This document shows positions 4,331 through 64,000 of a stretch of DNA of 64,000 nt, in pieces. Source of the DNA: Marsupella aquatica (lineage: Eukaryota > Plantae > Marchantiophyta); assembly GCA_973895155.1 (NCBI GenBank), contig OZ316895.1, positions 10,900,184 to 10,964,183 on the forward strand. The letters are read 5' to 3'. A program made the translations under genes and the position numbers. The notes beneath the pieces were generated by a model. That model did no database searches, was not told where the DNA came from, and worked only from the letters and a program-made list of their open reading frames with translations. Position 1 is the first letter of the stretch, and each line of letters opens with the position of its first letter.

Positions 4331-6304
4331 AAGGATAGTAAAGTTTAGGGTAACCCATCCCCAAGAGGGGCTAATGGGCTCTGATCCCCAAGGGCGCTGA
4401 GCCCAAGGGTGTTACAGCCATTATCCCCAAGTGGAGATGAAAACCGAGCGTAAAACCTGACTGAGTGAATTTTTACACAGCATTCAGTTCAGATTTACAT
4501 AGGAAAAGTGGCCCAGGGTTTGCATGGCTTCACCCTGGGGTTAATGCCCCGTAACCTTGTACACACATACAAAGGGAAAAATTCTGGAAGGGTTTACAAT
4601 AAAGTAGAAAAACCCTGAGTTTGACGGAGCAGTAAATTTTGGACCAAAGATCATTTGTGTCAAATATTATTGTTGGAAGTAAGTAATCTACTGTGCAGAG
4701 ATTGTGTGAAAATCTACCTAAAAACCCTGAATGAAATGCACTGCAAAACGCCCTGTAACAAACGTACTTGGAAACGACGAGATTTATAATATGTGTGAAC
4801 CAACAACTTAGGAAAAAAAGAGCCTCAAGCTCAATACATAAAAACAAACTTGCCTCAATTATAGCATTGCTAAAACAATGCTCCTCAAGTTCTTGTACGA
4901 AGAAAACACCCTAAGGAATGGGAATCAATGGAGAGCAAAGTGGGCACAATGGTGTACTGCAGCCACAAGTATCACATGGTTGATGCTCATTTCAAACTGA
5001 TTGATTATCTTGTAAATTCCCCCTGACGTAGCGAGCCCCAGTGAGGTTTGCCAAAACAGTTTTTAACTACATTGCCACTAAAGATGTTTAAATTTATAAT
5101 ATTGTCACTGTTTCTTTCATATTTACAAAAATGTCACGGGTTTCCGTATATAGTTCCCCTAGTTACCTTGGTAAACTGTTATCCGTATACAAAACAATGG
5201 CATTTTTATAAATACAGAAAAAACAGTGGTAGTATTATGAATCAGAACATCTTTAGTGGCAAAGTAATCAAAAGTTGTTTGCCAAAATGCACCTTGCACT
5301 ATGCATACAGTAAAGTCCTATTCAGAGGGCATTGTGGAATATAATGCCCCAAAAAGCTCAAGTTTCGAGTGGCAATTATTGCCCATAATGCTCCGGTTAC
5401 AGGAGTTTACTATACTGAAAGATTGTTAGTTTTTCCAACTTTAGCAAAAGTAGAGGAGAGTCTTTATAAAGAGGTGATCCAGATCTTTGCCGGGACAATA
5501 TGCGCCAGAATGCCCTGTAAAATACAAAAGGATAAATCACAAAGGGCATTAAGAATGGCACTAGCCACTCAGTATTGCGGGCTGGTAGGGATGCTCTAAG
5601 CTTTGGAAACACAGTACCAAACTACCTCTCCCCTCTGGCTGGCTTCTTTGAAGGCTTCCTCCTAGACTGGAGTGCCTTTTGAACAAGGCAATGGCATTAA
5701 TTTGTTGTCCTTTGACATGGTAATATATATATATATAGTATTTTTAGATCTTCAAAGTTTGAACATGCATGTTTGATTCTCTTTAAATGTGGAAAACAGA
5801 AATTCAGATGGACCACCTGGATGAATCACTACAATCCAGTAGATTGTCCTGAAACTTCTTTCTTAGGGTGCCACAAATTGTAGTCCATTTGGCCATCAGG
5901 CAAAGGAAGTGTCCTACATTTATTTCCCAGAATAAAATAAAACATTATTTGTATTATATATCAACAAATTAAAGTCTATTAATCACAATTGAATTCTGAC
6001 TCTAAGCTCTCCACAATCTGTGTGTTTAGTTGAGCTAAAGTATTACCAAGTTATCATTTTAGACTTAAGCCATTCCTTTCCGCAAAGGAATTTATCAATG
6101 ATTGGATGGATCACACCTTTGACCTTAAGGTTCCATGGGACCAGACATTCTTTCACACCCAAAAAGCTGGACATTTATTGAATCAGCTTCTAAGGACAAT
6201 GTACAATATTCTCCTTATGTATTGTATTTACAAATACATCACAATTCTTGTTGATGGTTATATTGGTGAATTTGTTATCCATATTTGAAACTGCTATATG
6301 GTGC

Positions 6305-7240
6305 ATCCACCTTTCATATTTTGTCTCATTCATATTTTGTGTCAAGTATTTTGATTTTAATGTGCCTTAACAAGGTAAATCATTTGTATTCATTTGATTT
6401 TGAATTATCTTTAGGACCCCTCTTAATTTTAGTGAACTTATAGTATTTTGAATGTATTTGGCTCCCCTCATCAAGGTTTAGTCTTTCCTTTTCAATCACT
6501 CCTTAGTGAATTCTTTTTTTCTCATGAGAGTGTAAGAAATGAATTTGATCAATGTGAACATCTAGTGTATTAAGTTCCCCTCATGGTTTACTTTGCAAAA
6601 TTTATGGTTTTAATTGAGTTGAATGTCATTACCTAGAAGCAAGTGAAAATCTGTATGTGCACAACTCAACTCTTTAGTACTTTTGTGCTTTCTTGGTCAT
6701 AATGTGATTTTATGTGCATATATTTTACATGTCCCTACTTAAATGAATTACATATCACTAGAAGACAAAAAAGAGACATGTTCCCGGATGAACATGCTAT
6801 ATATTCACTCCACCTTTCATATTTTGTCTTATTCAGAGTTTTGGTGTCATATATTTTTATTTCAATGTGCCTAATCAAGGGGCAGCCTGTGTATCATATA
6901 CATTTTTAATTAATTTATGGACCCCTTTTAATTTACATTTTTATTTTAATTATGGACCCCTTTAATTTTAGGATTCTAGAGTATTTTGAACTTATTTTGG
7001 CAGCCCCCTAATAAATTCTAATGTTTGTGATTTATTAGAAATGAAATGAAAGGCTCCACCACTTAAACAAAGTATTCTCATGAGTGAGAGAAATGATTTT
7101 GATTGTGTTTTAGATTCCCCTCATGTCTTTTTTTCCTAAATTTATGGTTTTTATTGAAATGAGTGTCATTCATGAGGACATTGAATTAAGTGCACACATC
7201 TAGGTAGCATCCTTGATTGTACTTTTTTTGGTCATTGTGC
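6305..7240. repeat. Diverged ~500-bp tandem duplication in AT-rich TE-like DNA
   Basis: tccacctttcatattttgtct at ~6307 and ~6809, followed by collinear blocks (ggacccct, tctcatgag, ttcccctcatg, tttatggtttt). Confidence 0.6.
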
Positions 7241-7801: not shown

Positions 7802-8147
7802 TGTTAGATATTGCTCTAGTCTTGTGACTCATGAGCTAACCACAGTTTGTCTAACTCGGGTTAGGACTTAGCTAATGTTAGCGCTAGTGTTGTTGTGCAT
7901 ATAGCCAGGGCTAATGCCAGACCCTGGTGAAACTTACTTAGGCTCATTGTTACGGAGCTAGTTGAGAGATAGGGAGAGCTTGTGCTGTGGATGCTTGGTA
8001 TGGCCGGTCGGCCTAGAGTGCAGTAAAGCTCTTGTGTTCTCGTGGATGTAGCCTCATGTGGAAGTGAACCATGTATCTCTCTGTGTCGACTCTTGTGAAT
8101 TGGATGGTTCATGGGCTTGCCGTTACGAATGTCATCTATGCTCAACA
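7802..8147 (+). mobile_element. Solo LTR of a Ty1/copia family related to the 48441 element
   Basis: TGTT...AACA ends with 5-bp TSD GTGAT (7797-7801, 8148-8152). The 3' half is clearly similar to the 48441-48915 LTR (gagagatagggagagctt, ttggatggttcatgggcttgccgtt, ctcaaca). Confidence 0.92.
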
Positions 8148-8885
8148 GTGATAACCATGTTGTCTACTTTGGCCTACAAAGCAAAGTATTCATGTGGCAG
8201 TTGAAAAAATGTCAACTCCTCAGTTGGGTCCACAATTGATTTCGTGAGAAAATCTAATCTAATCTAAACAATACAAACTATAAAATCTAACATATTTGTC
8301 CAATACAACATGACTACCAGCTTCTCTTCTTAATCAGACTTCTCTCTTTTGAAAGCTTAAGCGCTGCCCTTCTCCATTTGGTGAATAGTTGCGTCAAGGT
8401 CATGAGGCTATTAACCTCTAATTCAAAACTTGCCAAATTCACACTTGAGTGAAATCTCCAGAATTTCCAATAATTTGAAAGTACATAGACAAATCAGGTG
8501 ACAAATATTCTACAAAGAGGACTCAACTACTAGAAAGCTTAGGGTTCCTTGCTTAGAAAAGCAGATTTTTCAATTGATCTGGAGAAAGTAGTCTTGTCAA
8601 CTCAAATTGAGTGCCTAGGGCAATTTAGTGGTCAAATATAGTGTCATCCAATGCCCAAATCAACTAACGTAAACAAAATTGTGCCTTGGGTTTATTAATT
8701 AATGTTCTAAAATTAGTGAAAATATCTCATAGATCTTAAGTGTTTTAATGTGTGCTAGCAGAGCATTATGGACCCTTGTATGGACCATATTAGCCTCTCA
8801 AAACGCAAGCTCAAACAAGGCCTAAAAAATGTAGCCAGGGGGTCCACGAACTAATTATGTTCTCATATTTTATTTACTTTCAAAT

Positions 8886-18504: not shown

Positions 18505-21500
18505 CTAAATGCTGATCATATGTACATCGGTCATTTGGTACACATCCAAGTTTTTGACATGGATGGGAGTACTTCCGTTGTTGAAGAGGAAGAGATGCGA
18601 ATTCTCGTCGAGAGCTGCGGTGGGATAAACCCTCGATGTCACTGCCTGCCTGCCGCCTTGCACAAAGGTCTCCACGATGGAGTGATCCACCTGCATTTGA
18701 AAAACAAACCCATCAATGAGTGACGAATTCAGCATGTCTCAGACAGAAAGCAGCAGTGTCACTATCGTTTGCAAAAATGATAGGAGTTGAAAACAGAGGA
18801 TGTGGAATTATCCGAAATGAGAGTTACTGTTAAAGCACCTTTGAGTAGATTGCACTCTGAAATAGCGTTACATACCAGAACACGCATGGTCAAATAGTTT
18901 TCAGTTGGCAAAACGGTGACGTAGCTGCCATAAACAGTTTTGTCGAGGTCCTTCGCCAGAGATGATCTGCTCTGGTCACTGCACACACGGGTAGACCACT
19001 GCCCGTTCTCCTGCGAAGCGATGTAGAAGAAAACTGCGGTCTGCTCAGTTTGAGCATCGTCGGTGTGGACGAGAAGTCCGAACGGGCCAAAAATGCCCTT
19101 GTGTGCCGACCCTCCTTGACTACAATCGAAACCCTCGGGATTCACATTTCCAATGGTAGAAAGGTCTGGCTTTTCGAAAGTGATTTCAACATCCAGCTGC
19201 ATAACAGGACCAAAAGATCTTATTAATATTAACAACTTCCGTCTGTTGAGCTACCAGGTTATCACTACAACATTTCCAAAACATATAGTTGATATTGTTT
19301 CTACCGTAATAACAGGCACATTCACCCCTTCACTAAACACTGTCCGCTGTGAGAAAGAAATAACAATTGTTACAGAGGACAGTGTTATCACCTGAGATCC
19401 ATCACCTCCTGCAATTTTAAGGACATCTCCATCGTTAAGGGTAATGTCTTCGTAGCTAGCCTTGGCACCGCGCAAGCTATTCACCTCCTCCACTGGCCAT
19501 GTCAGCAAATTCTTTTGGGTCTTGTCGTCCAACCAAATCGTCCTTGGAATTGCCTGTTTCCATACGCTCAGCGTTAGCACACAACATAAAACGTGGCTAA
19601 TATCAAACGATCATCTCGCCTTGCAACTCTAGAAACGAGTTCCACATTTTCAAGGTATTGTCTGGATACACAAGTAGCTGTCGAAATACAAAAGATGGGC
19701 GAAAGACATCAGCTTTTGCTCAAGATTTGAAAGAGAAGCTGATACCGTACCTGAACGGAAGCCCATCCCTTGATGATGTCGTCTTGTTGAGTATCAGACT
19801 CATTGACCCAGCTCCACAATATGCGTCTGCCGGTGCTGGCGTCGTAGAAACTCTTGGAGGCATAGAATTTTCCGTAATCGTATCGGTAGCCCTTGCCAAG
19901 GTCTAGAGCAGGGTCATCAACAGTAAACTCGTGGGTCACCGTGGAATAAGTGCCGATCGTGTAATAATCTTGAGCTATCGTATCCAAACTGGCCTTCAAC
20001 ACGTACTTGTACGAGTCCAAGTAGTTTTCTGGTCCCAATTTTGGCTGACCAAGTTTCTGAATTGATTCCTTCGGTTTGTAACTGACAGGGAAGAGGTCCA
20101 CACACTCCCACATCCCTGAGCCGGCAACCTGGTGCAAATAGTTGGGAGCCAAATCCCACTTGGAGAAATCGCTACTGGAATACAAAAGAGACATTCCATC
20201 CTTAGTTCCATCTGCATTATCCAACTTCGTTCCAATAATCAGCCTCCACAAACCATCATCCTCCAACCAGGCAGTCGTGGGGTCTCTGAAATCATCCTTC
20301 TTGTAGCCCACAGGGGGTTCCATGATCGGATTGGTCTCTGCCTTCCTCCATTTCCGAAGCAATGGGTCTGAGGGATCTACTGGGTACGCCACAGCTTGTG
20401 ACTGGATAATCACGCCATTCTCAGTTCGTCCACCAGTGTAAAGGATCACCGGAGTTCCATCTTTCAGGATTGTTGCAGAGCCAGACCACACACCATCTAT
20501 GTCATACCACTGGTCGGGATACAACGCCACTTCGAGGTACATCCAGTGAATCAAATCTGTCGACACAGCATGGCCCCAGGAGATGTTGCCCCAGACGGCA
20601 GCGTTGGGGTTGTACTGGTAGAAGAAATGATAGAAGCCTCCATAGTACATAGGAGCTGCAAATTCCGAGAAGTCAAGATTAGAACTTGACACTTTGCGCA
20701 CAGTTGATGATGCCCATTGCTTAAGCTTAACCCAATGCACAACTACGACACAGCAAGTTTCCTCGAGGTCACTGGTGACTACATGACTTTCGAAAGAGAT
20801 CGATGAGACGTGTGATGAAAAACTGTCTTGGAGGCAACGAATCGCGGAAATCCTGCAAGACTAACCATCGCACTGGGACCACTGACTGCCTAGAAAGCCC
20901 ATCGGGTGTCACGATTAGGAATCTGTAGGAACTGTGATCGCAAAGCGAAACTGTGACGAATGAGAATGATTGAGAAGTTTGGCAGCTTGCCGCACAAAAC
21001 TTTCATCCAAAGGTCAATATGGTTTTACCACTGAGAGGCGTGGGCCCAGAGTAACATAGAGAGGTGAAAACGAGGTCTGGGTAAGCAACGAAGAAAACCG
21101 ACTCTGTTGCGCAACTGACAGGAGAGATTAATTGACCAGAAAGACCGTCACTTCATGCAAAGAAGGACACAGATATCGTTTTAGAGGCTCACCATTGGGA
21201 TCTGTCGACAGAAGCAAAGGGCAACGCGAATCCCGCCATACACATGACAGAAGCCAAACAACAAGATAAACATCCATCAGCTAAATAATCTCTGCTGTAC
21301 TCCATTCTATTGATATTACAAAGTCGTGACAGAGCAGAAACAAAGTCGTGACAGAGCAGTAACAAAGTCAGAAACGCCAATTGCACATCGGGCCGCCAAC
21401 TAAAAACTAAACTGCGGATTATAATCATTGAAAGCGAATTGCAGCCTGTTCCCAGAATTTGGGGATCGAGTCAGATATGGAATGTGGCCTTACCGTTCAT

Positions 21501-40500: not shown

Positions 40501-42613
40501 ACTAATTAACAGCAGAATTAGAACCGTGATTGACTGACTATTGTTGTTAAAGCAGTAAAGGGATCCATTTATCGGAAAAGAAATCGGACAATCTGGTCCT
40601 TGACGAACGTTACGAGATTCAAGAACCACACCTGAACAGATGCCCATCCTTTGACTGCTTGGTCGTCGAGGCTATCCGATTCATTGGCCCAGCCCCACAA
40701 AATACGCCTGCCGGTGCTAGTATCGTAGAAAGACTTGGAGGCATAGAATTTCCCATAATCATATCGGTATCCACTTCCTATATCCAGAGAATCGTCATCA
40801 ATAGTGAAAGTATGGGTTTCGGTGGAGTAAGTGCCGATACAGTAGTGATCTTGCAACCAATCCTGCACTCCAGCCTTCAACACGTACTTGTACTCATCTT
40901 GATAGGTTTCTGCTCGCAAGACGGAGTGATCCAGCCCATTTTGGCCTTGCACGGAAACTGGAAAGAAATCGACGCATTCCCACATCCCCAAGTCGATGCC
41001 CTCGCGCAAGTACTTCTCCAGCTCCCAATGGAAAAAATCATGGCTCTTGTAAAGCAAAGCCACGCCATCCCTGGTTCCATCGGCATTATCTCTCTTCGCT
41101 CCCACAGTGAGCCTCCAGAGACCATCTTTCTCGAGCCAAGCAGTCGTGGGGTCTCTAAAGTCATTAGCTTTGATTCCCTTGGGATTATAGAGGATTGGAT
41201 TGGCATCTACTTTCTTCCAATTCCGTAGCAGAGGATCGGAGGGATCGACAGGCAGGGCGAGGTTCTGTGTCTCTTCAAAAGTATTGTTAACCATATTCCG
41301 TGCGCCCGTATAGACGATGGCAGGAGTTCCGTCTTCGAGAATGGTGGCCGAACCAGAAAAGACCCCATCTTCGTCATACCACTTGTCAGGGCTGATAGCC
41401 ACTTCCAGGTGGAACCAGTGAATTAGATCGGTGGACACCGCGTGACCCCAGTGGATATCTATCAAATCGACGCCGTTGGGATTGTATTGATAGAAGAAGT
41501 GGTAGTAACCCATGTAATACATCGGCGCTGCAAATCAATGGAGTTAAATTAAGTGTTAGTGCAAAGAGGAGGGCGCTTTCAGATGCCAAGAAATCTTCAT
41601 TTTCCAGAAAAATTATAGCAAGAATTTTCGGAGCTCGCCAATCTCGACGAAGATATTTCGCGAGTGACATAGTGCAATTGGCGTTGTACATGTAGTTGCG
41701 AGGATGAACGGGGGATGAATGTCCTTCAGGGTTAAGAGGATCATCATGAATTACGACGAGAATCTAGAGAGGTTAGCTAGACTTCAAGATCTCGTTAGCC
41801 GGAGACACATCGTCTCATGACAAAATAACAAAGTTATTTCGCGAATTCCGAAAACCATGAGATAATCCTTGTCGCTAAATGTTACTGAGTTTGCATCCAT
41901 CATGTACCGTCATAGTTTTCCAGTCATTTCTCATTTACGTGGACATTCCATCGAAGTTGCACCGTTTTCAAAGGAAGGGTGGGCCACGCATGAATTGTGC
42001 TGGAGCTCACCATTTGGATCTGTTGACAGCGTGCAGCAATAAGTAGCACCCATCGTCCAGTCCATCAACAGCACGAGACAAAGGCAGCAAGTGCACTCAT
42101 TAGAACGATACCAATAACCTCAATTTGGCATTGAAATCAGCAGGGTGAGGGGAAGTAATAATTACAACAAGTCGAAGAGTAGCGGGCGAACGCCTGAACA
42201 AAATCACAACTGCTTGCTCCCATCGAGAAGGAATCATACGTACCATTCATCCAATTCCTTTCAGGCTGAAAATGGTAGCCCGTGCGTGATGGTATATAGG
42301 ATTCATTGTCGTGCTCCTGAGATTCATCAGCCACGACGTCTGCTTGTTCTACTCCTCTCAGACCGTGTCCTCCTTCACTCTCCCAACGTAAGTTATAAGA
42401 AACAGCTGCCCCGAACAGGAGCAGGGTCGCTGCGATGCACGTCACGAGGTGCACAGTCCTGCCTTTCCGAAGAGCACATCCGGATCGGGATTCATCTGCT
42501 GGTAATCCAGCTAGTGCGACATAATCCGCATTCACTAGATAAATTTTTGAAGCATCTTGTGGCTCACTACCAACAGCGACGAGCAAGGCTGCCTCTACAT
42601 CAGATGTCGCCAT
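37554..42613 (-). CDS. GH32 vacuolar-type beta-fructofuranosidase-like, copy 2 (divergent active-site pocket)
   Basis: Exons 42613-42244, 9-nt mini-exon 42019-42011 (ATCCAAATG), 41527-40632, 40409-40248, 39143-38911, 38301-38211, 37739-37554. Motifs WMNDPNAP, FRDP, WECVD. N-terminus has DVEAALL, YVAL and a TM helix. Confidence 0.95.
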
Positions 42614-48656: not shown

Positions 48657-50166
48657 AGTTGCACACTATATCATAAGAGGCATGTGTGCTTGGAGAGGTA
48701 GAACCAAGGCTCATTGTTATGGAGCCACTTGAGAGATAGGGAGAGCTTACACTGTGGAGACTCGGTATAGTTGACGGGCTTAGAGTTCAGTAAAGCTCTC
48801 TTGTGTGTTCCCGTGGACGTAGCCTCAAGGAGGTGAACCACGTATCTCTTGTGTCGACTATTGTGCGTTGGATGGTTCATGGGCTTGCCGTTGCGATCGT
48901 CGTCTATACTCAACAATTGGTATCAGAGCATGCTTGGGAGGTGACGTGTGTTCATGACGGGATTTCATTACGGTTTTTCCAGCGTTGAGTGTCGATGGAT
49001 TTCCCGGAGTTCCGTCGCATGGAACTTGGAGTTTATGGGCTCAACGGATAGATCGGGGCAAGAGCTTTCTAACGGTGTGAAGAAATCGCTGAACGGAGCT
49101 CGTGGTGCAGAGAGATCTAAGTTTTCGTCGTTCTGGATTTTGTGAAGAAAGTTGGCAATCGACTCGGAGGGAGAAGCGTCAAGTGTTTTGACTCAACAGA
49201 GAGATTGAGGCAAGACGATTGTTTTGAGTCCGGGATTGGCTCTTTGATGCAAAAAGGAAGGCTAAGCAAAATCAATTACCTTGTTGGACTTGGTGACGGC
49301 ACCAAGTGCAATTAATCAACATTCGTTGTTGACAAGGTACCATTTTTTCTCTTTGAAAAACTGATTCGAAATTGGCTATGGCAATTGAGAGAAATCTGTC
49401 ATCTTTACCAATTTTTTTCTCCCTCGTTCTTTCCTCGTTTTGGGTGCTTCTTATATCGATCTTCACCATCTCGGAGTTTAGTTTCCAAATCTGAAATCAG
49501 ATCTTGATTTCGTCAAAACCCGAGTGAGATATCTTGCGTTTGGTGTCGAGGGGTACATTCTGCCGTGTGTATTTTCTGTGCGCGCGACCAGATTTCGACG
49601 ACGAAGGGTGGTGGGGGGTTTTGGGGGTTCGAGGACAGGTGTCAGCCCCTCGATTGTTCTTCCAAAATTCTCACAGGGCCTGTACAAGGGTCATAGAATA
49701 TTCCAAAAAACCAGAGAGCTATTTTTTGACCGTCCGACAAAGATTTCATCCGCCGAACGGTAACTTTTTTGGTTATTTTTTGGCGAGGTCGTAGCCATTG
49801 AAGTTGGCAACGCGGCGCACCAATCACATCGTAATTCCGACAACGGGTTATACTTGGTATTTCGGTTATTCCCTGAGGTGGTCAAAATGGGGGAGTTTCC
49901 CAAGGTTTTACCCACCTCGACCGAAATTTGAATAACTTTTCCGTCAAATTTCGATTTTGATTTCGGTTTTCAGTATTGGACTCCTAGCTTTGTGGGCTAC
50001 GCGGCGGTGTTGAGTTTTGAGTTTTTTGAGAAGTTGTGAAAAACAACAATTTTTGTGATTTTCTCATATGAGTGATTCGGAGGAGTTTTTCGAAGACGTG
50101 GAACTTGAAGCACGAGGATCACCGCGGCGGTTTCAGGGGTAGAGAGAGGAGCAGGAGGAAGAGCAC

Positions 50167-51089
50167 GTGACACCGATACCATCACCGGTGCGGCGTGTGG
50201 TGGAGGAAGCAGTACTACTACCGGAGCTCACGATAGTGCCAAAGAAGAAGACGGGGACTTTCAAGCTTGGGGGACCCAAGTATGAAGTGACAAAGTATGA
50301 TGGGCGCTCTGACTACTTGCTATGGGAGAAGCAGGTGAAGGGATGGGCCAACTGTTGAGCCCTCGTGAAGACGATGTTGATGAGAAACAATGGGACCGCA
50401 TGCAGGAGCAGGGAGTGTGGTGTGTTACACTCTATCTCATGCCTCCCATCATCAAGCAGTTGGGTGCACATAAGGATTGCATGTCCTTGTTTTCGGAATT
50501 GCAGAGCAAGTATCACCACAAGGAGTTGTCGAACCGGCTCTACACTTCCTACAAACTGATGAGTTTCAGGATGAAGGAATCCGGTACGAAGTTGCAAGAC
50601 CATGTGGATGCTTTCAACGACATGGTCGTTGACTTGGAAAACCTTGGGGAGACTTTGAATGATGAGACGAAGGCTCTGCAGCTTCTTAGTTCATTGCCTC
50701 CATCTTACCAGTCCCTATCACGAGTGTTGTTGCATCGTGATAGGGATACCATTTCATACAATGACGTGGTAAGTTCTCTGCTTAGTGATGATCTTCAGCA
50801 GAAGATGCACATCACGTCACAGCCTTCATCATCTGGTGCTGCCCTCAATGTTAACCGTGGGAGGAGTATGCAGCGACCAACTGGGGACCGTAGAACCCAG
50901 TTTAGATCTAAATCCAGATCTAAGTCCAAGGGTAAATCCCCTCAAAGGAGGTAGGTGACATGTTGGAAGTGCAACCAAGTTGGACACTTCAAGCGAGACT
51001 GTAAGGGAAAGGCAACAGAAACTTCATCGGCAAATGTGGCTAGGGCTGATGGAGAAGCTGATTTACTCAATGATGAGTATGTTTTATGA
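50167..51089 (+). pseudogene. gag: copia gag (frameshift ~50345, TAG at 50952-50954)
   Basis: KYDGRSDYLLW, L.SFRMKE..KLQDHVDAFN, LLSSLPPSY and zinc knuckle CWKCNQVGHFKRDC at ~50961-51002. Confidence 0.88.
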
Positions 51090-51134
51090 AGTCAGGGGTA
51101 TGCCCTGTGCACGTCATCTAGGAGAGCAGATGAT

Positions 51135-52234
51135 GTGTGGATTCTTGATTGTGCTTGCTCTTTTCATATTTGTTACATTCGTGAGTTTTTCAGTTCTTAC
51201 TCTGTTTCAAACGGTTCAGTTTTGATGGGAAATGATCACTCCTGTCAAATTGAGGGAATTGGGTTTGTGAAGATTCAAATGTTTGATGGCGCTGTGCGCA
51301 CAGTATCCGGAGTCAGGTATGTACCTGGCATGCGTAAGAATCTGATTTCACTTGGTGTGTTGGATTCAAATGGTCATCAATGGAGCGTTATTGATGGTGA
51401 ACTTCAAGTCAGGTCGGGAGAGATAGTGATTTTGAAGGGGAGTAGACAAAAGAATTTGTATGTGTTACAGGGCAATACTGTATGTGGAGAGGCCAATGTA
51501 ACCAAGTCTCACAAGGAGATGACTGAACTGTGGCATTCACGGCTAGGCCACATGAGTGAGAAGGGTTTGGCTATCTTACGGAAGAATGGACTCATTTCTT
51601 ATTTGCAATCTTGTAAATTAGAGTTTTGTGAGCATTGCATTTTTGGAAAGCAGCATCGTCGTGCTTTTGGTGTTGGAACTCATCGTTCCAAAGCGGTTCT
51701 TGAGTACATACATAGTGACGTGTGGGGTCCATCTCCGACTCCCTCACACTCTGGAAAGTTGTACTATGTATCATTTATTGATGATTACTCAAGATTTGTG
51801 TGGATTTATTTCATGACGCATAAGTCTGATGTCTTGTCCATTTTTAAGAAGTGGAAAGCCCAGGTGGAGAATCAGACTGGAAACACGATCAAGTGTTTGG
51901 ATACAAGGGTGAAGAGTCTGAGGTCAGACAACGGCGGGGAGTACACTTCAATGGAATTTGAAGAGTACTGTTCAGAACAGGGGATAACTCACCATCTCAC
52001 CACAGTTTATACTCCGCAGCAGAATGGTGTCGCTGAGAGGCTCAATCGGACACTGTTGGAGCGGTCACGGAGTATGTTGAGCCAATCAGGTTTACCACAA
52101 GAATTTTGGGCAGAAGCTATCAATACTGCAGCTTATTTGGTAAATTTTTCTCCTTCTAGTGCTATCAATTTCAAAACGCCGTTTGAGATGCGCTATAAGC
52201 GGCAAGCAGACTATCATGGCTTGGTAGTTTTTGG
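51135..52234 (+). pseudogene. pol: copia pol fragment: protease, GAG-pre-integrase, integrase core
   Basis: WILDCACSFHI, LWHSRLGH, CEHC, HSDVWGP, LRSDNGGEY, QQNGVAER. Truncated at LVVFG where LTR sequence begins. Confidence 0.93.
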
Positions 52235-52357
52235 AAGCTCTCTTGTGTGTTCCCGTGGACGTAGCCTCAAGGAGGTGAACCACGTATCTCTTGTGTCGAC
52301 TATTGTGCGTTGGATGGTTCATGGGCTTGCTGTTGCGATCGTCGTCTATACTCAACA

Positions 52358-52490
52358 TTGCCCTCCCCGCAAAATCTTGCTCTCTCCCCGCAAAATCTTG
52401 CCCTCTCCTCGCCATCTTGCCCTCCCCGCAAAATCTTGCCCTCTCCTCGACATCTTGCCTTCTCCTTGACATCTTGCTCTCGCCTCAAAA
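52358..52490. repeat. Short-period (~20 bp) C/T-rich tandem repeat, the copia target site (other half 48395-48440)
   Basis: aaaatcttgccctctcctcg(a/c)catcttgcc units lie on both sides of the element. Confidence 0.8.
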
Positions 52491-53404
52491 TCTTTCGTGC
52501 AACGCACGGGCATGGGGCTGGTTTTATAATAATAGAATAGTTTAATGTTTTGAGAATAGTTTATTAGTCTTGAATGTGCAAGTGAGTTTTGACATTATGT
52601 TTATGACTTTTTTGGTGTGTATTGAAGGAATATGTTTGAATAAGGCCTAGGGGGAGCTACACTCAAGTGGCATACAAGATATTTTTTTAAGATTTCTCAT
52701 GGTGACTACCATCAAGGTAAATGTTTATATCAGTGCATGTTTTTATGACTAGAATTTGTGTTTATTTGTTATTTGTGAAGTGACTTGATATTTTGTCCAT
52801 TCAATTGACATGAGCAATTTTGTGTGAGTTTGTAGACAAATTTTGGCATCACTAAGAAACAACCCCAAGCTATCATCTAAGCTTGAAATAGAGGTTTGTT
52901 TCTCTCTGTATTCCTCGTTGAATAAATGTGATTGCTAAAGTTGTTCACTCATAAAGCTAAATTAAGCATGGAATCTATCTATACTTTAAAATATAATTTT
53001 CACACATGTAATATTTATCATAGTAGTATTTATTTTCAAATGAATTATCAGATTAGCTAAAAATTTGTAGCATTATCATATATGGATGTGCAAATATTAG
53101 TATATTAATTAGTATAAAAGCTTTTATTTGAATCAACACAATAGATTTATGCAATCTTAACAAAACTATAAGTAATTGTAATTTGCAATTTATTTCTAGA
53201 AAGCAATGCTCTTAGTGGATAGATGAGTCTTTTGTAATCTTGTTTCATATTGTTATGGTTATCTTAGGGCATTACATATTAAGAAAGTGAAATTTGCCTT
53301 TGTTGGATTCCAAAAATGGAGAAGTTAGCTCTTTGTACCTAAAATTATTCACTTAAGTTTATTATCAATCGAGTACTCTAATTATAAGGTCCATATCATA
53401 TTAT

Positions 53405-54090: not shown

Positions 54091-55235
54091 ACAAGGTTAT
54101 AATACTCTAGAGTTTACATTCCAAAAATCTAACATTCAATACCACTTCAAAACAATATTTTCATAACTAGACCCTTCCACATGCTAACATTGTAATAATC
54201 CTTGCATTAAACTTCAATGTAAGTTTCCCATGACCAAACCCTTGCTTATTCACCCCACCTTCCTCATGATCTTCCACCCCTACTTATATTTCTAATAATT
54301 TTCCCATTTTACTTGTATGGAGGTTGAGAGAATGCTTTATATGTTGCTTACCAAGCTTATTTATTTTATTTTATTGCAATTAAATTGCCTTTTAAAATAT
54401 ACCTAATACCCAAGCTGGAGATTTTTCAAATATTGATTTTTTTCAAAGCCGACCTACTGCCCAAGTTCTTCTTATTCCTTAGGCACCATAAAGGGCATAA
54501 TCTAGTTATGTCAACATCCAAGCATGGATAGGTTTAGTTTAATAGAGTTGTTTGTGTCGAGAAGTGACATTACTCTTCACACGAGGCTTCACATACAAAA
54601 GTAACATAGATCATTGGATTCAAAACATCTAATGGTGTAAAAGTTCTTTTTGAGCTAAGAGACCACAAGAGTATTCACACACAAAATGAATCTGGATGGT
54701 TGGAGTCATAACATCTAATGGTAGGAAAGCTTATTTTTAGTTGAGAGGCCACACGAGCCTTCACACGAGTCTTCACACACAAAATGGATGTAGATGGTTG
54801 GATTCAAACCATCTAATGGCTGAATATTTACAGGGTGATGTGGAATTTTGACAGAATTTTCAGATTTACAGAAATCTCTAACTGGACCTGTAATAAATAG
54901 TGGATGCACTATTTTCAAAGGAAGAAGAAACTGTAAGCATTTACTTTGCAAAGATCAAGTCTTCCCTTGTACCATCGATCCATAGGAAGTGTCTTTCAAA
55001 TCTGGCGGGGCGTTTTGGGTAAAAACACCAAAATATAAATAATTAACCAAAACAATAAATATATTTCTTGACAAAAATAATAATACATGACACAAAAAAT
55101 AATACATGACACAACAAATAATACATGACACAAAACAATAATACATGACACAAAAAATAATAATAAGACAAAATCTGAAAGGTAAATTCAACCATATAGC
55201 AGTTTCAAATATAACAGCATCTTTTGTGCAGCACG

Positions 55236-55488: not shown

Positions 55489-55734
55489 AATTAAATAATT
55501 CCTCTCCAGAAAATGAGTTAAATGCTCGGTCTCAACCCTTTTGGTCCCATATAGTTACTGTACTTCAGTACTTGTTTACTTCCTGAAAGTAACAACTTGG
55601 CTCAAATATCTCAATGGTATATACCATAGACCTTAGGGTGCCCGGTTTGACCTTGCCCGTCAAACTGGGCGTTTGAGAGCGGCAAATTGACAACCCGGCA
55701 CCCGGGTTCGGAAGCAGTCCGGGAAAGGAAACGT

Positions 55735-56170
55735 CCGGTTCGGGGTTCGGGTTCGGGAGGAGGTTCGGGAGGAGGTTCAGGTGGGGGTCCGGGTGACTAA
55801 TCGGGTCCGGGTCCGGGGCGGAGGCGCTCGGTGGGGGCTCGGGGTGGGGTCCGGGTGGGGTTCGGGTCCGCTCAGTGGGGGTTCGGGGTGGGGTCCGGGT
55901 GCGGCTCGGGTCCGGGAGGAGGAGGTGCGGGGGGTTCGGGTGGGGGTCCGGGTGGGGTTTGGGTCCGGGTCCGAGGGGTTCGGGTTCGGGAGGTACGGGG
56001 GGTTCGGGTGGGGTCCGGGCCCGGGGCGGAGGCGCTCGGTGGGGGTTCGGGGTGGGGTCCGGGTGGGGTTTGGGTCCGGGAGGCCGGGGTGGGTCCGGGT
56101 GGGGATCGGGGTTCGGGGTCCGGTTCGGGGTTCGGGGTCCGGTTCGGGGTTTCAAAGTTCGGGGTTCGGG
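55735..56170. repeat. G-rich subterminal repeat array (GGGTTC/GGGTCC/GGGTGG)
   Basis: Dozens of short GGG-containing units, followed by a (GGA)n tract at ~56305-56402. Confidence 0.9.
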
Positions 56171-57095: not shown

Positions 57096-58750
57096 ATGGT
57101 CATCGAAAATTTTAGTTTAGAGTATAGGCAAGTGTTGGAGATGATCACAAAATATGTGAATGAGGGATATGAGCCAAATCTTGTTGCTCTGGATGCATTG
57201 AAGAACGCTCAAAACACTCTCGAACATGCTAGGAATTCTAGCAAAGTGGCCGGGAAACGAAAACGGAAGGGGGCAAACGAAGAGGCAAAACAGGTTCGAC
57301 ACAATGTGGTAGTGTCGATATGGAAAGAGATACTTTATCGCTACACTCAACCGAAACAGTATGGGGTGGACGGGTTCGAGAGGGAGTTCACAAGACACGG
57401 AGAGAAAGGATACAAGAACTTTCTTGGTGAGATAACCCGTTGTATGCGGGAAAGTGTACAAAAGGAGGATAATTTCACACGAGAGCAAATGAAGTCATTT
57501 GAAGATGAAACTGAGAAACCGGGAGGATTTCTGGAAAATTTGGCACTCAACTTGGAGAAGCATGTTTGGGATAATTTGGCAGCCAAAGTGGAAGAGGGTG
57601 ACACTACATTGCTTGGAAACCCCGGGATGTACACACACAAGAGAGAATTGCTAGTGAAGTGGAGTAAGGAGTTGGCAATGGCAAAATCTGATAGCAATGT
57701 CAAATATGCTAACGAGATTGTGCACTTTGGGGATGTCAGCATCAAAGTGCTCAAAAAGGAACATGTCCATCGCGTGTAGTTCCAGAGGTTAGGAGTATCC
57801 ATTTTCTTAAACCTGAGCAGGTGCACAACACACGTCGCATTGGGAAAGGAATCCAAGGAGATGTATACACTTGTCGTATATTACATTGTCCTCTCATTCC
57901 CGTCAACGTGACCTTAGTCGCAAAGCGGTTCAAGGATGGAGACCAGCATAAGAGACGAACTGACGCATTACAAGAAGTGCTTATGGGAGGACTAAATCAT
58001 AAGGGAATCGTTGGAGCTCTTGCGTTGACTATTGAGGATCCGCCAAAATTTATTTACGATCACTATAATGGAGGTGACTTGGGTAGCTTTATTGATAAGT
58101 GCGGCATATCGTCAAAGAGCAAGGGGAAGGCACAGATCACGACGGACCTTGATTTCAAGTTTATTTCGGAGAAGAAACTCTTGTTGGAGAATCGGTTGGG
58201 AATCGCCTTGGCTTTGCTGAAGACACTGCAATACTTGCATGAGCATGATCGATTTCATTGTGATCTTCACTTTGGAAACATCCTTCTTCATTTCGATCAC
58301 GAGCACGATGTGGCTATTAAGGTGTATGTTGGTTTATGTGATTTTGGCTTGTCTAAGCATAAATCACAGTGCAAATTACCAGCTAATCGGATGTGGCCCA
58401 CAGCAACAGAAAAAGCAGCAACATACCAAAAACAATTTCCACAGTTGGCTCCGGAGCTTGTTCAACCTACCCCTGTCGAGTTTAGTGAAAGTACCGATAT
58501 ATATGCTTTGGGGAATATTTTTGAGACATTATTGACAGAGAATTGGGATGGAATGTCTAAGGGTTCACGGTTTTTGGGGAGGGGTTGGAGTGCACAAGTG
58601 CATGGCCCCAAATTGGATATCATAATCCGTGAAATGATGGCCACGGATGCCAAGAAAAGAATGGATTGTGCTTTTTGGAGTTTGAAGATAGTTCGAACGT
58701 TTCCAGATTGCACATTGCATTTGCACAACAGTCCATATCTTAGAGATTAG
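57096..58750 (+). CDS. Protein kinase (TKL-like) with unknown N-terminal domain; two ORFs joined by an intron or a frameshift
   Basis: 57821-58750 has IGKGIQGDVY, VAKRF, E in helix C, HCDLHFGNILL, DFG, APE and DIYALG, so catalytic residues are intact. This ORF lacks an ATG. ORF 57096-57779 (ATG) joins it via a phase-0 intron (57735 or 57747 to 57820) or a frameshift near 57773. Confidence 0.85.
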
Positions 58751-58937
58751 AGATTAGGGTTTACACAATTTTGTAAAGGTCACCTTAACAATTATATGTT
58801 TATTCATTGTATGTCAATTACAATGTTCTGCATTTTGTTGATAATATTCTATCAAACTTTGTCGTGAATGCCCAAAATTGTGCTAAATGTGTTTGTACAT
58901 TGTCAAATATCGCAGACCTTTTGTACACATCGCAAAC

Positions 58938-60896
58938 ATGGGACGATGGGAATTGTCTTCTGATGATGAAGACAAAGAGTTCATGACACAACATCTTACC
59001 ATGCAAGATGGTCAAGGATCCTATTGTGACGATGAAGCTCTTTGTAATAATGTGTTGGATAATCTTACAACCATTGGCATTCACTATGAGGCTAAACCCA
59101 AGGTTGATGGAACACCGGCGCCAAACACAAGAAGATGGGAAGATGAGGGTATGAAGGATGAATGGAGTATATTAACGCCCAATGTAAATCCTCCCCATGA
59201 CGAATGGGCCATGAATGCAAAGGAATTGGAGATGTTGATGCCAAAGAAAGACTTTTGGCCATTAGCACAACAAGTTTTTCATGATCCGGATCTTTGGGCA
59301 ACAAGATCATGGGCGCAAGAAAAATTCACCATGTCCAAAGTAACACATGCAGGTGTTAAATCACATTGGCAGCAACGATATCGAGAGTTTGCTCCACACA
59401 AAGCCCAAACGAAAATGAGTTCCGTTTACCCTCCTTTTATCCGATGTCTGATTGCTGAATTCATTCTCAAGTGGAAGGTGGATTACTGTTGGGAAAACAG
59501 TGCTGGCAAGCTGACTCATCAGGTGCATCCATCAGTGGTTGCGATTGCAACGAATAGGAATACAACTATTGCAAAGGACCCTTCAATGGAGACTTCCAAC
59601 AAGGGATCCAAAAGAAAGCTAGATGACACTGGGGAGGGATATGCGCATGAGAAGGGGAAAGCGGCTGTACTTCCTCGAGTCTCCATGCCTGACCGTGCAG
59701 CACCACCAACCAATGTGGAGTCAATGCACACCAAAAAACCAATCCTTGTAGGTGTTGGGAGTAGAACTCCACATGCAAAGAACAACAATGTTACTGATGC
59801 TAACAAGGATAAGTTCAACCTGCACAACATATGCAAGAGCTTGGGGGCAGATGTTGCAGAGGTGATTGAGACAAATCTCCGCACGAAGTATGTAGTGGAG
59901 CTATGTGAATGTGGCAGCATCGAAAAGTTCAAGTCACAATTGCAACAAGCTGATATAAAGATGAGATCACTTGAGAAGAAGCAGAACGAGCCGACGACCA
60001 ATTCGGAAGTGATGTTGTACAAGTGTCAATTGTTTGACAAGATGGAAGAAATCAATAAGCTGACAAAACAACTTGCTGAAAAAGAGCGTCAATGCAATGA
60101 ACTGGCACGACTTGAGGAGAAGGACAAGATCATTAATGATCTTAAAAGTGAACTTGCAACGCAAGCAATCATCATATCAAATCTTCACGAAGAGGTGCAA
60201 GAATTTAACAATGGTGCTTTGGGGATGAGGTCAAACAAAGGGCAAGGTGAATTATCGTCGCCAAATTTTGTTAACATGCAAATCATAGATCCTACAGGGC
60301 ACAGCAACCTTTTTCCAGATGTGGAGGTTGACGCGGAAGGTATTGATAGGTTTTTTGATAAGTGGAAAAAGGATGAAACTATGACAGCATTTGTTCGTGA
60401 AAAGGATGACAAGTGTACTTGGTGCCTATATCCTTGGGGCCCTGAATCTGTTTCCATGTTGGGAACCTGCGGTCATATATGGCATCATGCTTGCTTGTCT
60501 AAATGGTTGAAGAAAAGCCGAAAATGTTGGTGTCGCACACCATTTCATGAACGCGAGTATGAGCAACGAGGATTGTTGAAGCAAATGCCATCAATGGAGA
60601 CTCAACAAAACACTGAAGATATGACTGAAGATATGACTGAAGATACTATACCGGCGATGCAAATAGATGAAACTCCCATTGAACATTTCACAATCAATGA
60701 ATATAATTTGTCAGATGGGGAATTTGACAGGTTGTTATTCAGTGGTCGACTCGATGAGTGGAAACAATATGCGGCAGCCAACCAGCCATCAATAGATGAG
60801 CAAAATTTGCAACGATCCATTCGGCGCCATCGACGACGTCAACAACAGGCAGAGGTGAAAATAGAAGCTGTTGACAATAACAACAAAAGGAACTAA
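58938..60896 (+). CDS. Coiled-coil + RING-H2-like protein (putative E3 ligase)
   Basis: Uninterrupted ~650-aa ORF from ATG 58938, with a heptad-rich segment (KFKSQLQQAD..EINKLTKQLAEKE..). RING-like motif CTWC..CGHIWHHAC..W....CWC, with the last Cys pair shortened. Confidence 0.8.
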   Translation: MGRWELSSDDEDKEFMTQHLTMQDGQGSYCDDEALCNNVLDNLTTIGIHYEAKPKVDGTPAPNTRRWEDEGMKDEWSILTPNVNPPHDEWAMNAKELEMLMPKKDFWPLAQQVFHDPDLWATRSWAQEKFTMSKVTHAGVKSHWQQRYREFAPHKAQTKMSSVYPPFIRCLIAEFILKWKVDYCWENSAGKLTHQVHPSVVAIATNRNTTIAKDPSMETSNKGSKRKLDDTGEGYAHEKGKAAVLPRVSMPDRAAPPTNVESMHTKKPILVGVGSRTPHAKNNNVTDANKDKFNLHNICKSLGADVAEVIETNLRTKYVVELCECGSIEKFKSQLQQADIKMRSLEKKQNEPTTNSEVMLYKCQLFDKMEEINKLTKQLAEKERQCNELARLEEKDKIINDLKSELATQAIIISNLHEEVQEFNNGALGMRSNKGQGELSSPNFVNMQIIDPTGHSNLFPDVEVDAEGIDRFFDKWKKDETMTAFVREKDDKCTWCLYPWGPESVSMLGTCGHIWHHACLSKWLKKSRKCWCRTPFHEREYEQRGLLKQMPSMETQQNTEDMTEDMTEDTIPAMQIDETPIEHFTINEYNLSDGEFDRLLFSGRLDEWKQYAAANQPSIDEQNLQRSIRRHRRRQQQAEVKIEAVDNNNKRN

Positions 60897-61401
60897 AACC
60901 AATAGTCTCTACATTTTGATGTTATTTTCATGTAGTTACTATTAGAGACATTTTGTTAAAATAGAAGCGGCATATCCTCTTTGACAATTATTTTCAACTT
61001 GTAATTGGTAAAGAGATTTTGGAGTGACATTACATTGCATATCTCGTTGAGTACATATATTTTTCATTGGGGGCATGGCGTCGCCTTTTGGAGAATGTGT
61101 ATTTTCGTAAGAATATTCCATCCTCCAATCAGCCATAGGTTTTGGAAGCATATTGTCGGGCTCACAATCATATTTTTGGACAAGTATGAGGAAAATAGAC
61201 GTGATGAGAGACGGTAGCACAGTGGACTCAGGTACTGATCCTTCTCTGAAATCATTTCCAAAAGGAGATCGTGTAGCACAATGAGTTCAACAAAGTCAAC
61301 ATCGCAATGGTTTTAGCCGCCCAAGTTGAGAATGATTTTGTAGAAGGATGTATACCTAAGTCCACTCACTTTTCCTGTCTTTCATAATTTTTTCCGCTAT
61401 T

Positions 61402-62727
61402 GCTGCTACGGCCAATGACATTCATGCACATGCGAACCGAGGCCAACGCCTACTCCTTTGCCCACCGCAAAAATGGGCCCTCATTACAACTTGAAGTTGA
61501 ACGGAGTTTATTTGAGTACAAGAGAAGTTCTGAAAGCAAATGCACTCTCAGGTCAAATTTTCAGGTCCTTCGAGCAAAAAATTACTGAGTATGTCATCGA
61601 TCCGTTGGTTTCACAACTTCTCTCGTACTCAAATAAACTCTGTTCAACTTCAAGTAGCGTAGCTGCTACGACCAATGACATTCATGCGCATGCAAACCGA
61701 GGCCAACGCCTCTACATTTGCCTACCCCAAAAATGGGCCCTGATTAGAACTTGAAGTTGAACAAAGTTTTTTTCATTAGGAGAAGGTTTATTCAAGCAAT
61801 GGCACTCTCAGGTCAATATTTCAGGTCCTCCTGACTTTGTTATTATTGAATATGTTCGTGCTCCGTTGCTTGAATAAATCTTCTGATAATGAAATGAACT
61901 GACCAATTACTGGAGTACGGCTGCTACGGCCTATGACATTAATTCGCACAATTGCATGTTTATATCCTCTCCTTTCCGAATTCCAATTCGAGCTTGGACA
62001 TCCTCTCGTCAGCTGGTCTCCACCATTGCAGTTGCTCTTCACGCAAACCAAGATAGCAGTCTCTAGAATCCTCGAACCTATTTTATTTCAATGCATCATT
62101 CATAGTGTTTGAGGAATCCAGAGGTTCGCGTGAGGAGCAACTGAAAGGGTGGAGACCTGCTGACGAGAGGGTGTCCAAGCTCGAATTGGAATTCGGACAG
62201 GAGAGGATATAAATGGGTGAACTTTGACTTGAAATTGGTGACTGTATTTTGCGTCTGCATATCAATTTGGTGACCGATCTTGCGGAATCCCCGTGACCGT
62301 GTCTGATCATCATCATGACATTGCTCTCCTTGGCCACCAATGGGCCCTCATTACAACTTCAAGTTGAACGGGGTTTATATGATTATGAGAAGGTTACTGA
62401 TTATGTAGGCGATGTGTTCATTTCACAACTTCTCTCATAGTCATATAAACTCTGCCCAACTTCAAGTAGTGCAGCTGCTACGGTCAACGACATTCACCCA
62501 CCCCAAAAATGGGCGCTCATTACAACTTCAAGTTCAACTAAGTTTATTTTATTACGAGAAGGTTTATTCAAGCAATGACATTCTCAGGTCCAATAATGAG
62601 GTCCTCTCGACCTCATTATTATTGAATATGACGGTGCTCTATTGCTGGACTAAATCTTCGCATAGTGAAATGAACTAACCAATTAATGGAGGGGGCTAGT
62701 ATGGACTACGGCTGCTATGGCCAACAA
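61402..62727 (+). ncRNA. Array 2: five long fold-back hairpins separated by a ~21-nt direct repeat
   Basis: Repeat GCTGCTACGGCCAATGACATT variants at 61402, 61662, 61920, 62474 and 62711 (partial at ~62315). Stem arms: 61489-61539/61605-61655, 61765-61802/61863-61900, 61959-62049/62123-62213, 62356-62395/62427-62467, 62541-62576/62641-62676. Confidence 0.72.
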
Positions 62728-62963
62728 CAAGGTACTTTGAAATAGTCAGTGTTGGAGATTTGGAAAACATGTTGCGTTGGTGTGTCTCTATGGCATTCTC
62801 AAATGCAAATACAAATAAATTATTCAATCATTGTACAATAATAAACACACTGCAAGACAATACAATCATGTTACAAAAAATATAATTGTTTATAATTTTT
62901 TCTATGTCAGATACGACAATATAAGAGTAGCAACACTTGATATTATCCTAATGAAAAGATGCT

Positions 62964-64000
62964 TCAAGGCTGTGAAGAGAAATTTTGTGCATTGTTGTTA
63001 AGATTTTTGCACAAAAGCGCATTCCACTCGTCTTGTTTGTCGCCCCAACTGAGTGGATCACGATTGTGTGACTGAACATTGTGCGATGTTTCTTGAAATG
63101 ATGATATTCCTCGAAACCCACCAAGGCCAATAGGCCTGTTCGACGTATATGGATTCATGACACTTGGCCCTGCATACGCATTCAAGGGTGGACCTGCATG
63201 GTGTTGCCAGTTTGCATGTGGGTCGTTTGAAGTTTGACCTTCATGATTGTTGTATCCATGAAAAAAGGTTGATGTCCTTCCATTCGTCGGATGCCCTGCT
63301 GTGCTTGTGCGTTGCTCGTTGAAATATGGTCTGCTTGTGTCAACATCATTCGCAAAGTTCGACCAAGGTGACCTTGGTTGGGAAGGCATCACAAAGTTTC
63401 TGTCCAGTGATGCATCTTCCTCGTCTTGGATTTGCGATTCATCAATTGTAGGATACATCTCCAAATCCATTTCATTCTCCCATTCCTCTGCAGTAGTGAT
63501 GTCTGTATCTGGTGGAATACGAGTCAAGAACTCACTATCCTTATCTAGTGAAAATCCGTGTAGCAATTCATCAGCATCATCAATTGTATCATAATCTTCG
63601 ACATCTTCTTCACCACGTGTTGCATCGTACTCTTCATTGCTGCACAACTCCATGGAGATAGGTCTAGGTCCATCATTTGTTCTTCTTCTTTGGTCATAAC
63701 GTTCATATATAAACGTATGCGGGTTTCGAACATTTGTGAGCCCTTTCTCTACCCTCATGTTTGTAAATACAAACACCAAATCTTTTGCTCGATCATTTGT
63801 CAATCGATTGCGACTTTTGGAATGTATAAATCCATACGAACTCCAGTTTCGCTCGCAAGCTGATGCGCACACTTTTTGGTGTAAGATTCTTCGCGCCAGG
63901 ATTCTCAAATGTTTATAATCTGCACCATACGCATGTCACCACTCTGCTGGACTGACATTACCTATACTTGATTGGGCGGCTCCCATCGCTATTGATGTGT
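62964..64000 (-). pseudogene. hAT transposase C-terminus (dimerisation domain) with premature stop
   Basis: SPAEW*HAYGADYKHLRILARRILHQKVCASACERNWSSYGFIHSKSRNRLT...DLVFVFTN matches the hAT dimerisation consensus. The WW motif is broken by TGA at 63936-63938. An acidic tail follows. Confidence 0.9.

Follow-up and report, generated by a model that had tools for sequence, protein, structure and literature searches.

Probable transposon setting of the cassette

The window, by which we mean the whole 64-kb stretch of DNA analyzed here, contains a cassette of about 1.5 kb (61202-62676) that comprises six fold-backs and five copies of a spacer repeat. The array lies between a RING-finger ORF on the + strand and the convergent 3' end of a hAT transposase on the - strand, a context that was absent from the original prediction of the array. 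The features that flank it are:

55634..55652, +, candidate left terminal inverted repeat, starting TAGGGTG; its partner end would lie beyond the window
55743..56170, +, GC-rich subterminal repeat tract with 12 GGGTTCGGG and 12 GGGTCCGGG
57096..58750, +, protein kinase gene (PF07714, 60.7 bits), frameshifted near 57745 in the window copy
58887..60896, +, ORF of 669 amino acids with a C-terminal RING finger (PF13639, 26.7 bits, just below the 27.3 cut-off)
62964..63935, -, 3' portion of a hAT transposase gene that probably continues outside the window (PF05699, 28.8 bits against a cut-off of 21.4)

Elements of the hAT superfamily have paired terminal inverted repeats and an 8-bp target duplication. 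The right end of the present element lies beyond base 64000 and its left end is a candidate only; we take the 55634 end and the GC-rich tract to be similar to hAT ends. The hAT C-terminal dimerization domain (PF05699) was detected above its cut-off, and together with the kinase and RING cargo it flanks the cassette, so that the putative precursor sits inside a DNA transposon with inferred ends. A contig of 1604 nt from the public run X1 starts at 61995 and extends beyond the cassette in the direction of the transposase. The cassette is likely to be cargo of a hAT transposon, probably a multi-copy one, and not a host locus. To the left of the candidate element end, a 75-nt inverted match connects 55133-55207 with a site 48 kb away (approximately 6790-6862), which is probably another dispersed repeat.

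The nearest named relative of both cargo proteins comes from Calypogeia fissa, a leafy liverwort, with 84% identity over 61% for the kinase and 50% identity for the best of the three relatives of the RING ORF, which makes a liverwort the probable host. The frame change in the kinase near 57745 was seen by tblastn with both P0002 and P0013. No Pfam family matched the N-terminal 500 residues of the RING ORF, the predicted fold of its N-terminal 181 residues was unreliable (pLDDT 42.8), and the Atlas returned unnamed clusters only. Relatives of the kinase and of the RING ORF also occur in metagenome contigs.

A kinase-alignment scan yielded three loci from 96 candidates, one of which (L001) was too short. 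Another (L002, 5822 nt) encodes a related kinase with 56% identity beside different ORFs and carries no cassette; the kinase alone is therefore no marker of the cassette. In L002 (494-5521) the kinase relative lies upstream of two large ORFs, of 313 amino acids (cysteine-rich) and 653 amino acids, which presumably resemble a KDZ/CxC-type transposase. Transfer of this kinase from one transposon superfamily to another is possible.

Architecture of the array

The array is real and beyond chance. Its elements, all on the + strand, are:

61202..61387, +, hairpin P, sixth fold-back, z -6.4; no likeness to the other stems found
61402..61430, +, spacer repeat copy 1 (direct-repeat search)
61489..61655, +, hairpin A, nearly perfect stem of 41 bp, of which 16 bp form the lower stem, z -13.2
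61662..61690, +, spacer repeat copy 2 (direct-repeat search)
61765..61900, +, hairpin B, stem of 38 columns whose homolog in A is the upper stem, without the lower stem, z -7.2
61920..61948, +, spacer repeat copy 3 (direct-repeat search)
61958..62214, +, hairpin C, 91-bp arms with 92% complementarity, z -20.9; no likeness to the A, B, D and E stems found
62353..62470, +, hairpin D, A-type 3' arm, with a 56-nt deletion in the upper 5' arm and loop, z -6.5
62474..62502, +, spacer repeat copy 4 (direct-repeat search)
62541..62676, +, hairpin E, B-type, 82% identity to B over 202 nt, z -6.8
62711..62729, +, spacer repeat copy 5, at the cassette end

Five fold-backs (A to E) had been predicted and all of them exist, while hairpin P had been missed. 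When the + strand minimum free energy of each hairpin was compared with 60 dinucleotide shuffles, z-scores ranged from -6.4 to -20.9 across the six, and in a fold of the whole 1540-nt + strand each hairpin formed locally. The predicted direct repeat between stems was recovered, with copies starting at 61402, 61662, 61920, 62474 and 62711. Its supposed spacing of about 250 bp applies to part of the array: the measured distances are 260, 258, 554 and 237, C and D occupy a single interval, and D lacks a separate repeat. No further copy of any part or arm of the cassette was found elsewhere in the 64-kb window.

Two minor features of the layout can be mentioned. At the junction between hairpin A and the spacer repeat (61649-61674) there is a short palindrome with 6-bp arms and a 1-nt loop, with weaker forms at the other repeats, and it may mark a site of unit recombination. 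Just past the cassette, two AATAAA words stand on the + strand (62814 and 62840), a possible 3' end of a predicted cassette transcript.

Homology and paired changes in the A/B/D/E stems

Hairpins A, B, D and E belong to one homologous family in which leader, 5' arm, loop start and 3' arm can be aligned and identical columns pair. It had been proposed that B and E pair in a shifted register with another 3' arm. This was not the case, as the 3' arms of all four hairpins align gap-free and pairing falls on matching columns. What actually distinguishes the two types is the 16-bp lower stem, present in A and D and lost in B and E. Over the 38-column stem, a single register leaves 89.7% of 136 cells paired, compared to only 42-46% in slid registers. 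Pairs were changed on both arms at 9 of the 38 columns, a count reached in 0 of 500 shuffles, which is no probability because it rests on four related units.

That A and D changed both arms together was confirmed: the quoted arms are present, and over 19 columns all three changes in the 3' arm of D are matched in its 5' arm (hypergeometric p=0.01). Between A and B, 16 columns changed, ten of them on both arms (p=1e-4) and seven from pair to pair. However, in columns 20-29 a one-base shift on one arm is mirrored on the other (gap pair 61783/61787), a pattern more in keeping with copying than with stepwise compensation; the ten double changes are thus not ten independent events. B and E show no double change among 11 changed columns, and hairpin E is non-Watson-Crick at 10 of the 38 columns.

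Template switching, as described by Monttinen and Loytynoja for RNA hairpins, can create and keep such stems without an RNA step and makes multi-base paired changes at once (10.1101/2021.04.15.439925). The double changes are therefore evidence of coupling between the arms and not of selection on an RNA. The rate of change is a separate matter. A and B differ at 26 of 76 stem bases versus 19 of 136 bases in the leader and loop flanks (Fisher p=0.0008), and the 5' arm alone diverged at 14 of 38 positions (p=0.004 versus flanks), so that the stem diverged 2.4 times faster than its flanks. Faster divergence in stem than in flanks is not predicted even by arm copying alone: copying evens the arms and should not make them diverge faster than the flanks, unless the flanks were homogenized between units.

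Other copies of the cassette in public runs

In four public runs from two organisms and two studies, one of them possibly the source of the window itself, 80-89% of the words of the cassette are present. No RNA run is listed among the four, which counts neither for nor against transcription. Main contigs had depths of 179-229 in X1, 345-479 in X2 and 662-1506 in X3, and diverged contigs mostly 16-31, 28-39 and 87-135, respectively. In these three runs the depth of the main contigs is thus roughly tenfold that of the diverged contigs, a ratio of depths without a single-copy reference and hence not a copy number. If the diverged contigs are single copies, the ratio would suggest some ten near-identical elements per genome. 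DNA motif scans gave no match in viral contigs and none in metagenome contigs.

Compared with the main X1 contigs, the window copy has five differences. Three differences fall in stems (61520, 61779 and 62214), and at all three the main contigs of the runs pair better; the stems of the family are therefore tighter than those of the window copy. Among other-copy alleles in the B stem, which are unphased, 4 of 11 break the pair with the partner base of the window copy. Re-ordered cassettes also exist, with joints from 62228 to 61326 and from 62692 to 62013, as do loose ends at which a different sequence is joined to the B tail (30 letters of such ends are visible). A related family of much greater depth is also present in X2 and X3, where it matches B, C and the 3' flank in part.

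Variants in the C arms, together with the loose end at 61900, were considered as evidence of covariation among copies and dropped, because the arms of a perfect stem can share a contig or map to either arm. The loop-side part of C (62020-62080) resembles the small leader stem-loop of A and B (61680-61745), and loose ends in X2-X4 join the two. The A and B leaders may be shrunken C-type hairpins.

miRNA-like geometry and candidate guides

All six hairpins (118-269 nt) are below the 300-nt limit for plant MIRNA precursors, and each holds many 21-mers that pass the duplex rule of at most five mismatches and no asymmetric bulge above 3 nt, as tabulated in PMC12594335 (Tables 1-2). The four 5'-U candidate guides of the original prediction are in the sequence at 61618, 61866, 62430 and 62642, with 1, 0, 1 and 3 unpaired bases, respectively, and an asymmetry of 0-1. 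Filing the cassette as a plant MIRNA cluster would further call for miRNA and miRNA* reads of 20-24 nt with a 2-nt 3' overhang, a minimum of 10 reads and a precision of 75% or more.

In base-to-loop processing, DCL1 is described as cutting above a stem of 15-17 bp (PMC11317159), and DCL1, DCL3 and DCL4 are reported in liverworts (PMC11799827). In both stem types the best pairing falls where a 16-bp lower stem and a 21-bp duplex would lie. Under a 16-bp rule, the predicted 3p strands of A, B, D and E start at 61621, 61866, 62433 and 62642, all with U, although A/D and B/E amount to only two independent cases and a rule of 15 or 17 bp gives other starts. These positions coincide with the original guides in B and E and are 3 nt apart from them in A and D.

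The evidence on which strand would be the guide points both ways. The predicted 5p strands of B and E are identical (0 of 21 positions differ) and the 3p strands differ at 4 of 21, which favors a 5p guide. On the other hand, the deep related family of X2 and X3 has no deep variant at 61858-61884 on the 3' side, among the variants listed (40 of 156 and 40 of 42), which favors a 3p guide.

A scan of 399 arm 21-mers found no target site above chance in the rest of the window; the best score was 3.0 (a 14-nt exact match of hairpin P to approximately 405-418) versus 3.5 for 150 shuffles, and was treated as chance. None of eight Rfam matches reached the gathering threshold, the best being MIR2599 with 33.4 of 120 bits. 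The arms were also considered as a captured gene. Pfam searches of 32 of the 43 open frames of at least 25 amino acids gave one match, below its cut-off, and this origin was set aside. A C-arm frame matched none of 24 longer candidate proteins, one A/B/D/E arm frame had no match among 1.84 billion representatives, and searches of arm frames against the PDB gave nothing under E=1.2, the large protein searches being a weak null result since they took in only some arm frames. A bacterial promoter scan stayed at chance level, with a bacterial model that does not apply here.

Strand bias

It was suggested that many non-Watson-Crick positions are compatible with G:U pairing on the + strand and therefore favor a + strand RNA. 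This count had left out the class that would pair on the opposite strand (A.C); with both included, a weak bias persists. Among 70 non-Watson-Crick columns of the six hairpins, in a strand-neutral alignment of the arms, there are 26 G.T and 11 A.C (p=0.02). With the three columns shared by B and E counted once, the ratio becomes 23:11 (p=0.058, or p=0.035 without the change at 61520 that is private to the window copy). A control inverted repeat at 5054-5280 has 11 G.T and 9 A.C. Mutation bias linked to transcription would also yield an excess of G.T. Both strands fold, the + strand with lower energy in four of the six hairpins (B, C, D and E) and the - strand slightly better in P and A. The + strand G:U bias is borderline. 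The control is itself a MITE-like inverted repeat, with 90-nt arms of 77% complementarity.

Interpretation of the cassette

We propose that this is a transposon-borne, + strand, polycistronic hairpin small-RNA cassette, similar to rice miR820 but multiplied, with the RNA and its targets being predictions, and we judge the chances of this proposal to be about even. It retains much of the polycistronic miRNA-like cluster with diversifying guides that had been put forward, since miRNA-like geometry, covariation in one register, faster change of the stems and a weak + bias all support it; the setting is different, likely a hAT cargo instead of a host locus. miR820 is a CACTA-borne rice miRNA that, in the account of Nosaka et al. 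(2012, PMC3459959), reduces OsDRM2 and evolves jointly with the site it targets.

Transcription by Pol II would enter from the side of the RING ORF and continue through the six stems, each folding separately, and Dicer-like enzymes would cut this + strand RNA into several different small RNAs serving the element, DCL1 presumably cutting some 16 bp up from the foot of each stem. Where the lower stem is lost, as in B and E, the product would shift 16 nt upward, and one scaffold would thereby yield a different small RNA. The units may have multiplied via tandem duplication, with arm-to-arm copying (template switching) as the putative supply of paired changes that alter the small RNA sequence and keep the stem. 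Judging by miR820, the target would most likely be a host transcript with a role in silencing or defence.

The same elements could be read more boldly as a virus-style polycistronic microRNA arsenal. The cassette would then be modular and re-orderable; template switching would rewrite the guides and loss of the lower stem would shift the Dicer register, retargeting several host silencing or defence transcripts at once, beside kinase and RING E3-like proteins. We consider this bolder version unlikely. In the polycistronic miRNA clusters of viruses and animals, a single transcript from a selfish genome or from a duplicated array does carry several hairpins, but the present cassette sits in a plant transposon.

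Alternative explanations

A somewhat unlikely alternative is that the fold-backs are DNA-level palindromes without an RNA role, produced by template switching or arm conversion, expanded by tandem duplication and carried as transposon passengers. The mechanism is documented (10.1101/2021.04.15.439925, as far as its account of RNA genes goes), and it would explain the one-base shift mirrored between A and B; copying alone, however, leaves the 2.4 times faster divergence of the stem unexplained. The borderline strand bias and the decayed appearance of E agree with palindromes of this kind, as does the outcome of the searches for targets in the window and for arm-frame proteins, which found none. 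Against them, three unrelated stem families share one cassette and spacer in two organisms, and it is reasonable to think that the element would attract silencing through its hairpin transcripts and would thus pay a cost for carrying idle hairpins.

It is improbable, in our view, that the stems act in cis or as decoys and have no specific host target. They would then be cut or would block read-through between convergent genes, limiting sense-antisense RNA, or yield mixed siRNAs that tune their own family. A single stem would suffice for such a role, and stem sequence changes faster than the flanks, which is at odds with it even though the cassette occupies precisely the gap where the RING ORF and the transposase converge with their 3' ends. 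Both strands fold and the 91-bp arms of C are siRNA-precursor-like, as this explanation would have it; the arms, on the other hand, have no match to the element genes inside the window (the 5' part of the transposase lies outside).

That MITEs or foldback elements inserted independently of one another and formed a nest is very improbable: size (118-269 nt), terminal complementarity and high-depth partial matches of the B and C arms in X2 and X3 speak for it, but instead of a target-site duplication in unrelated flanks for each fold-back, which was not found (none beside A, C or D by eye), the flanks are homologous between units, which were therefore copied together with their flanks, and no other arm copy exists in the 64-kb window.

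Comparison with known systems and implications

The proposed small-RNA cassette shares with rice MIR820 a hairpin, here a putative small-RNA precursor, inside a DNA transposon (here a probably multi-copy one) and a sequence that varies among copies. It differs in that MIR820 belongs to a CACTA element and is a pre-miRNA with demonstrated expression and an OsDRM2 target, whereas here six hairpins of three families, all predicted precursors, form one repeat-spaced cassette in a likely hAT element, probably of a liverwort. With plant MIRNA loci of the base-to-loop type it has in common fold-backs below 300 nt, at most five duplex mismatches and a 15-17-bp lower stem, as given in PMC12594335 and PMC11317159. 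Unlike those loci, the cassette reaches no Rfam gathering score, consists of transposon-borne tandem units, and was matched on structural rules. Template-switch RNA hairpins (Monttinen and Loytynoja, 10.1101/2021.04.15.439925) resemble it in their multi-base paired stem changes; as described there, this is a mutation route in RNA genes, which can explain how the arms changed here but not why the cassette is kept.

The similarity to CRISPR had been taken to be one of layout only, and we agree. CRISPR arrays have unique spacers of 25-70 nt and cas genes. The segments found here are 210-530 nt long, mostly homologous fold-backs and eukaryotic, and no cas family was found in the eight ORFs scanned.

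In the main texts of mostly open-access papers, we found no account of a multi-hairpin cassette in a plant DNA transposon. A 2019 review, in its treatment of the subject, counts no more than three anti-silencing mechanisms encoded by transposons, all of them in flowering plants and one a miRNA (PMC6719617). If our proposal is true, RNA-based counter-defence would reach into a lineage of bryophytes as well, and would comprise a modular set where a single hairpin was known. As units and copies differ at known places, they would provide a natural test of how plant miRNAs arise and change target and of the role of template switching therein. If no RNA is made, the locus would be a clean natural case of paired arm changes without an RNA role, and a warning on the use of covariation as proof of structure.

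Other features of the window

Two copies of a GH32 (invertase-like) gene are found on the - strand at 19709-20740 and 40569-41522, approximately 20.9 kb apart and with 71-75% DNA identity. A truncated Copia retroelement (gag, integrase) occupies 48850-52500 and carries 123-nt direct repeats that are 99% identical and 3442 nt apart. It also contains 18-19-nt tandem repeats, and a third partial copy is located at 8082-8150.
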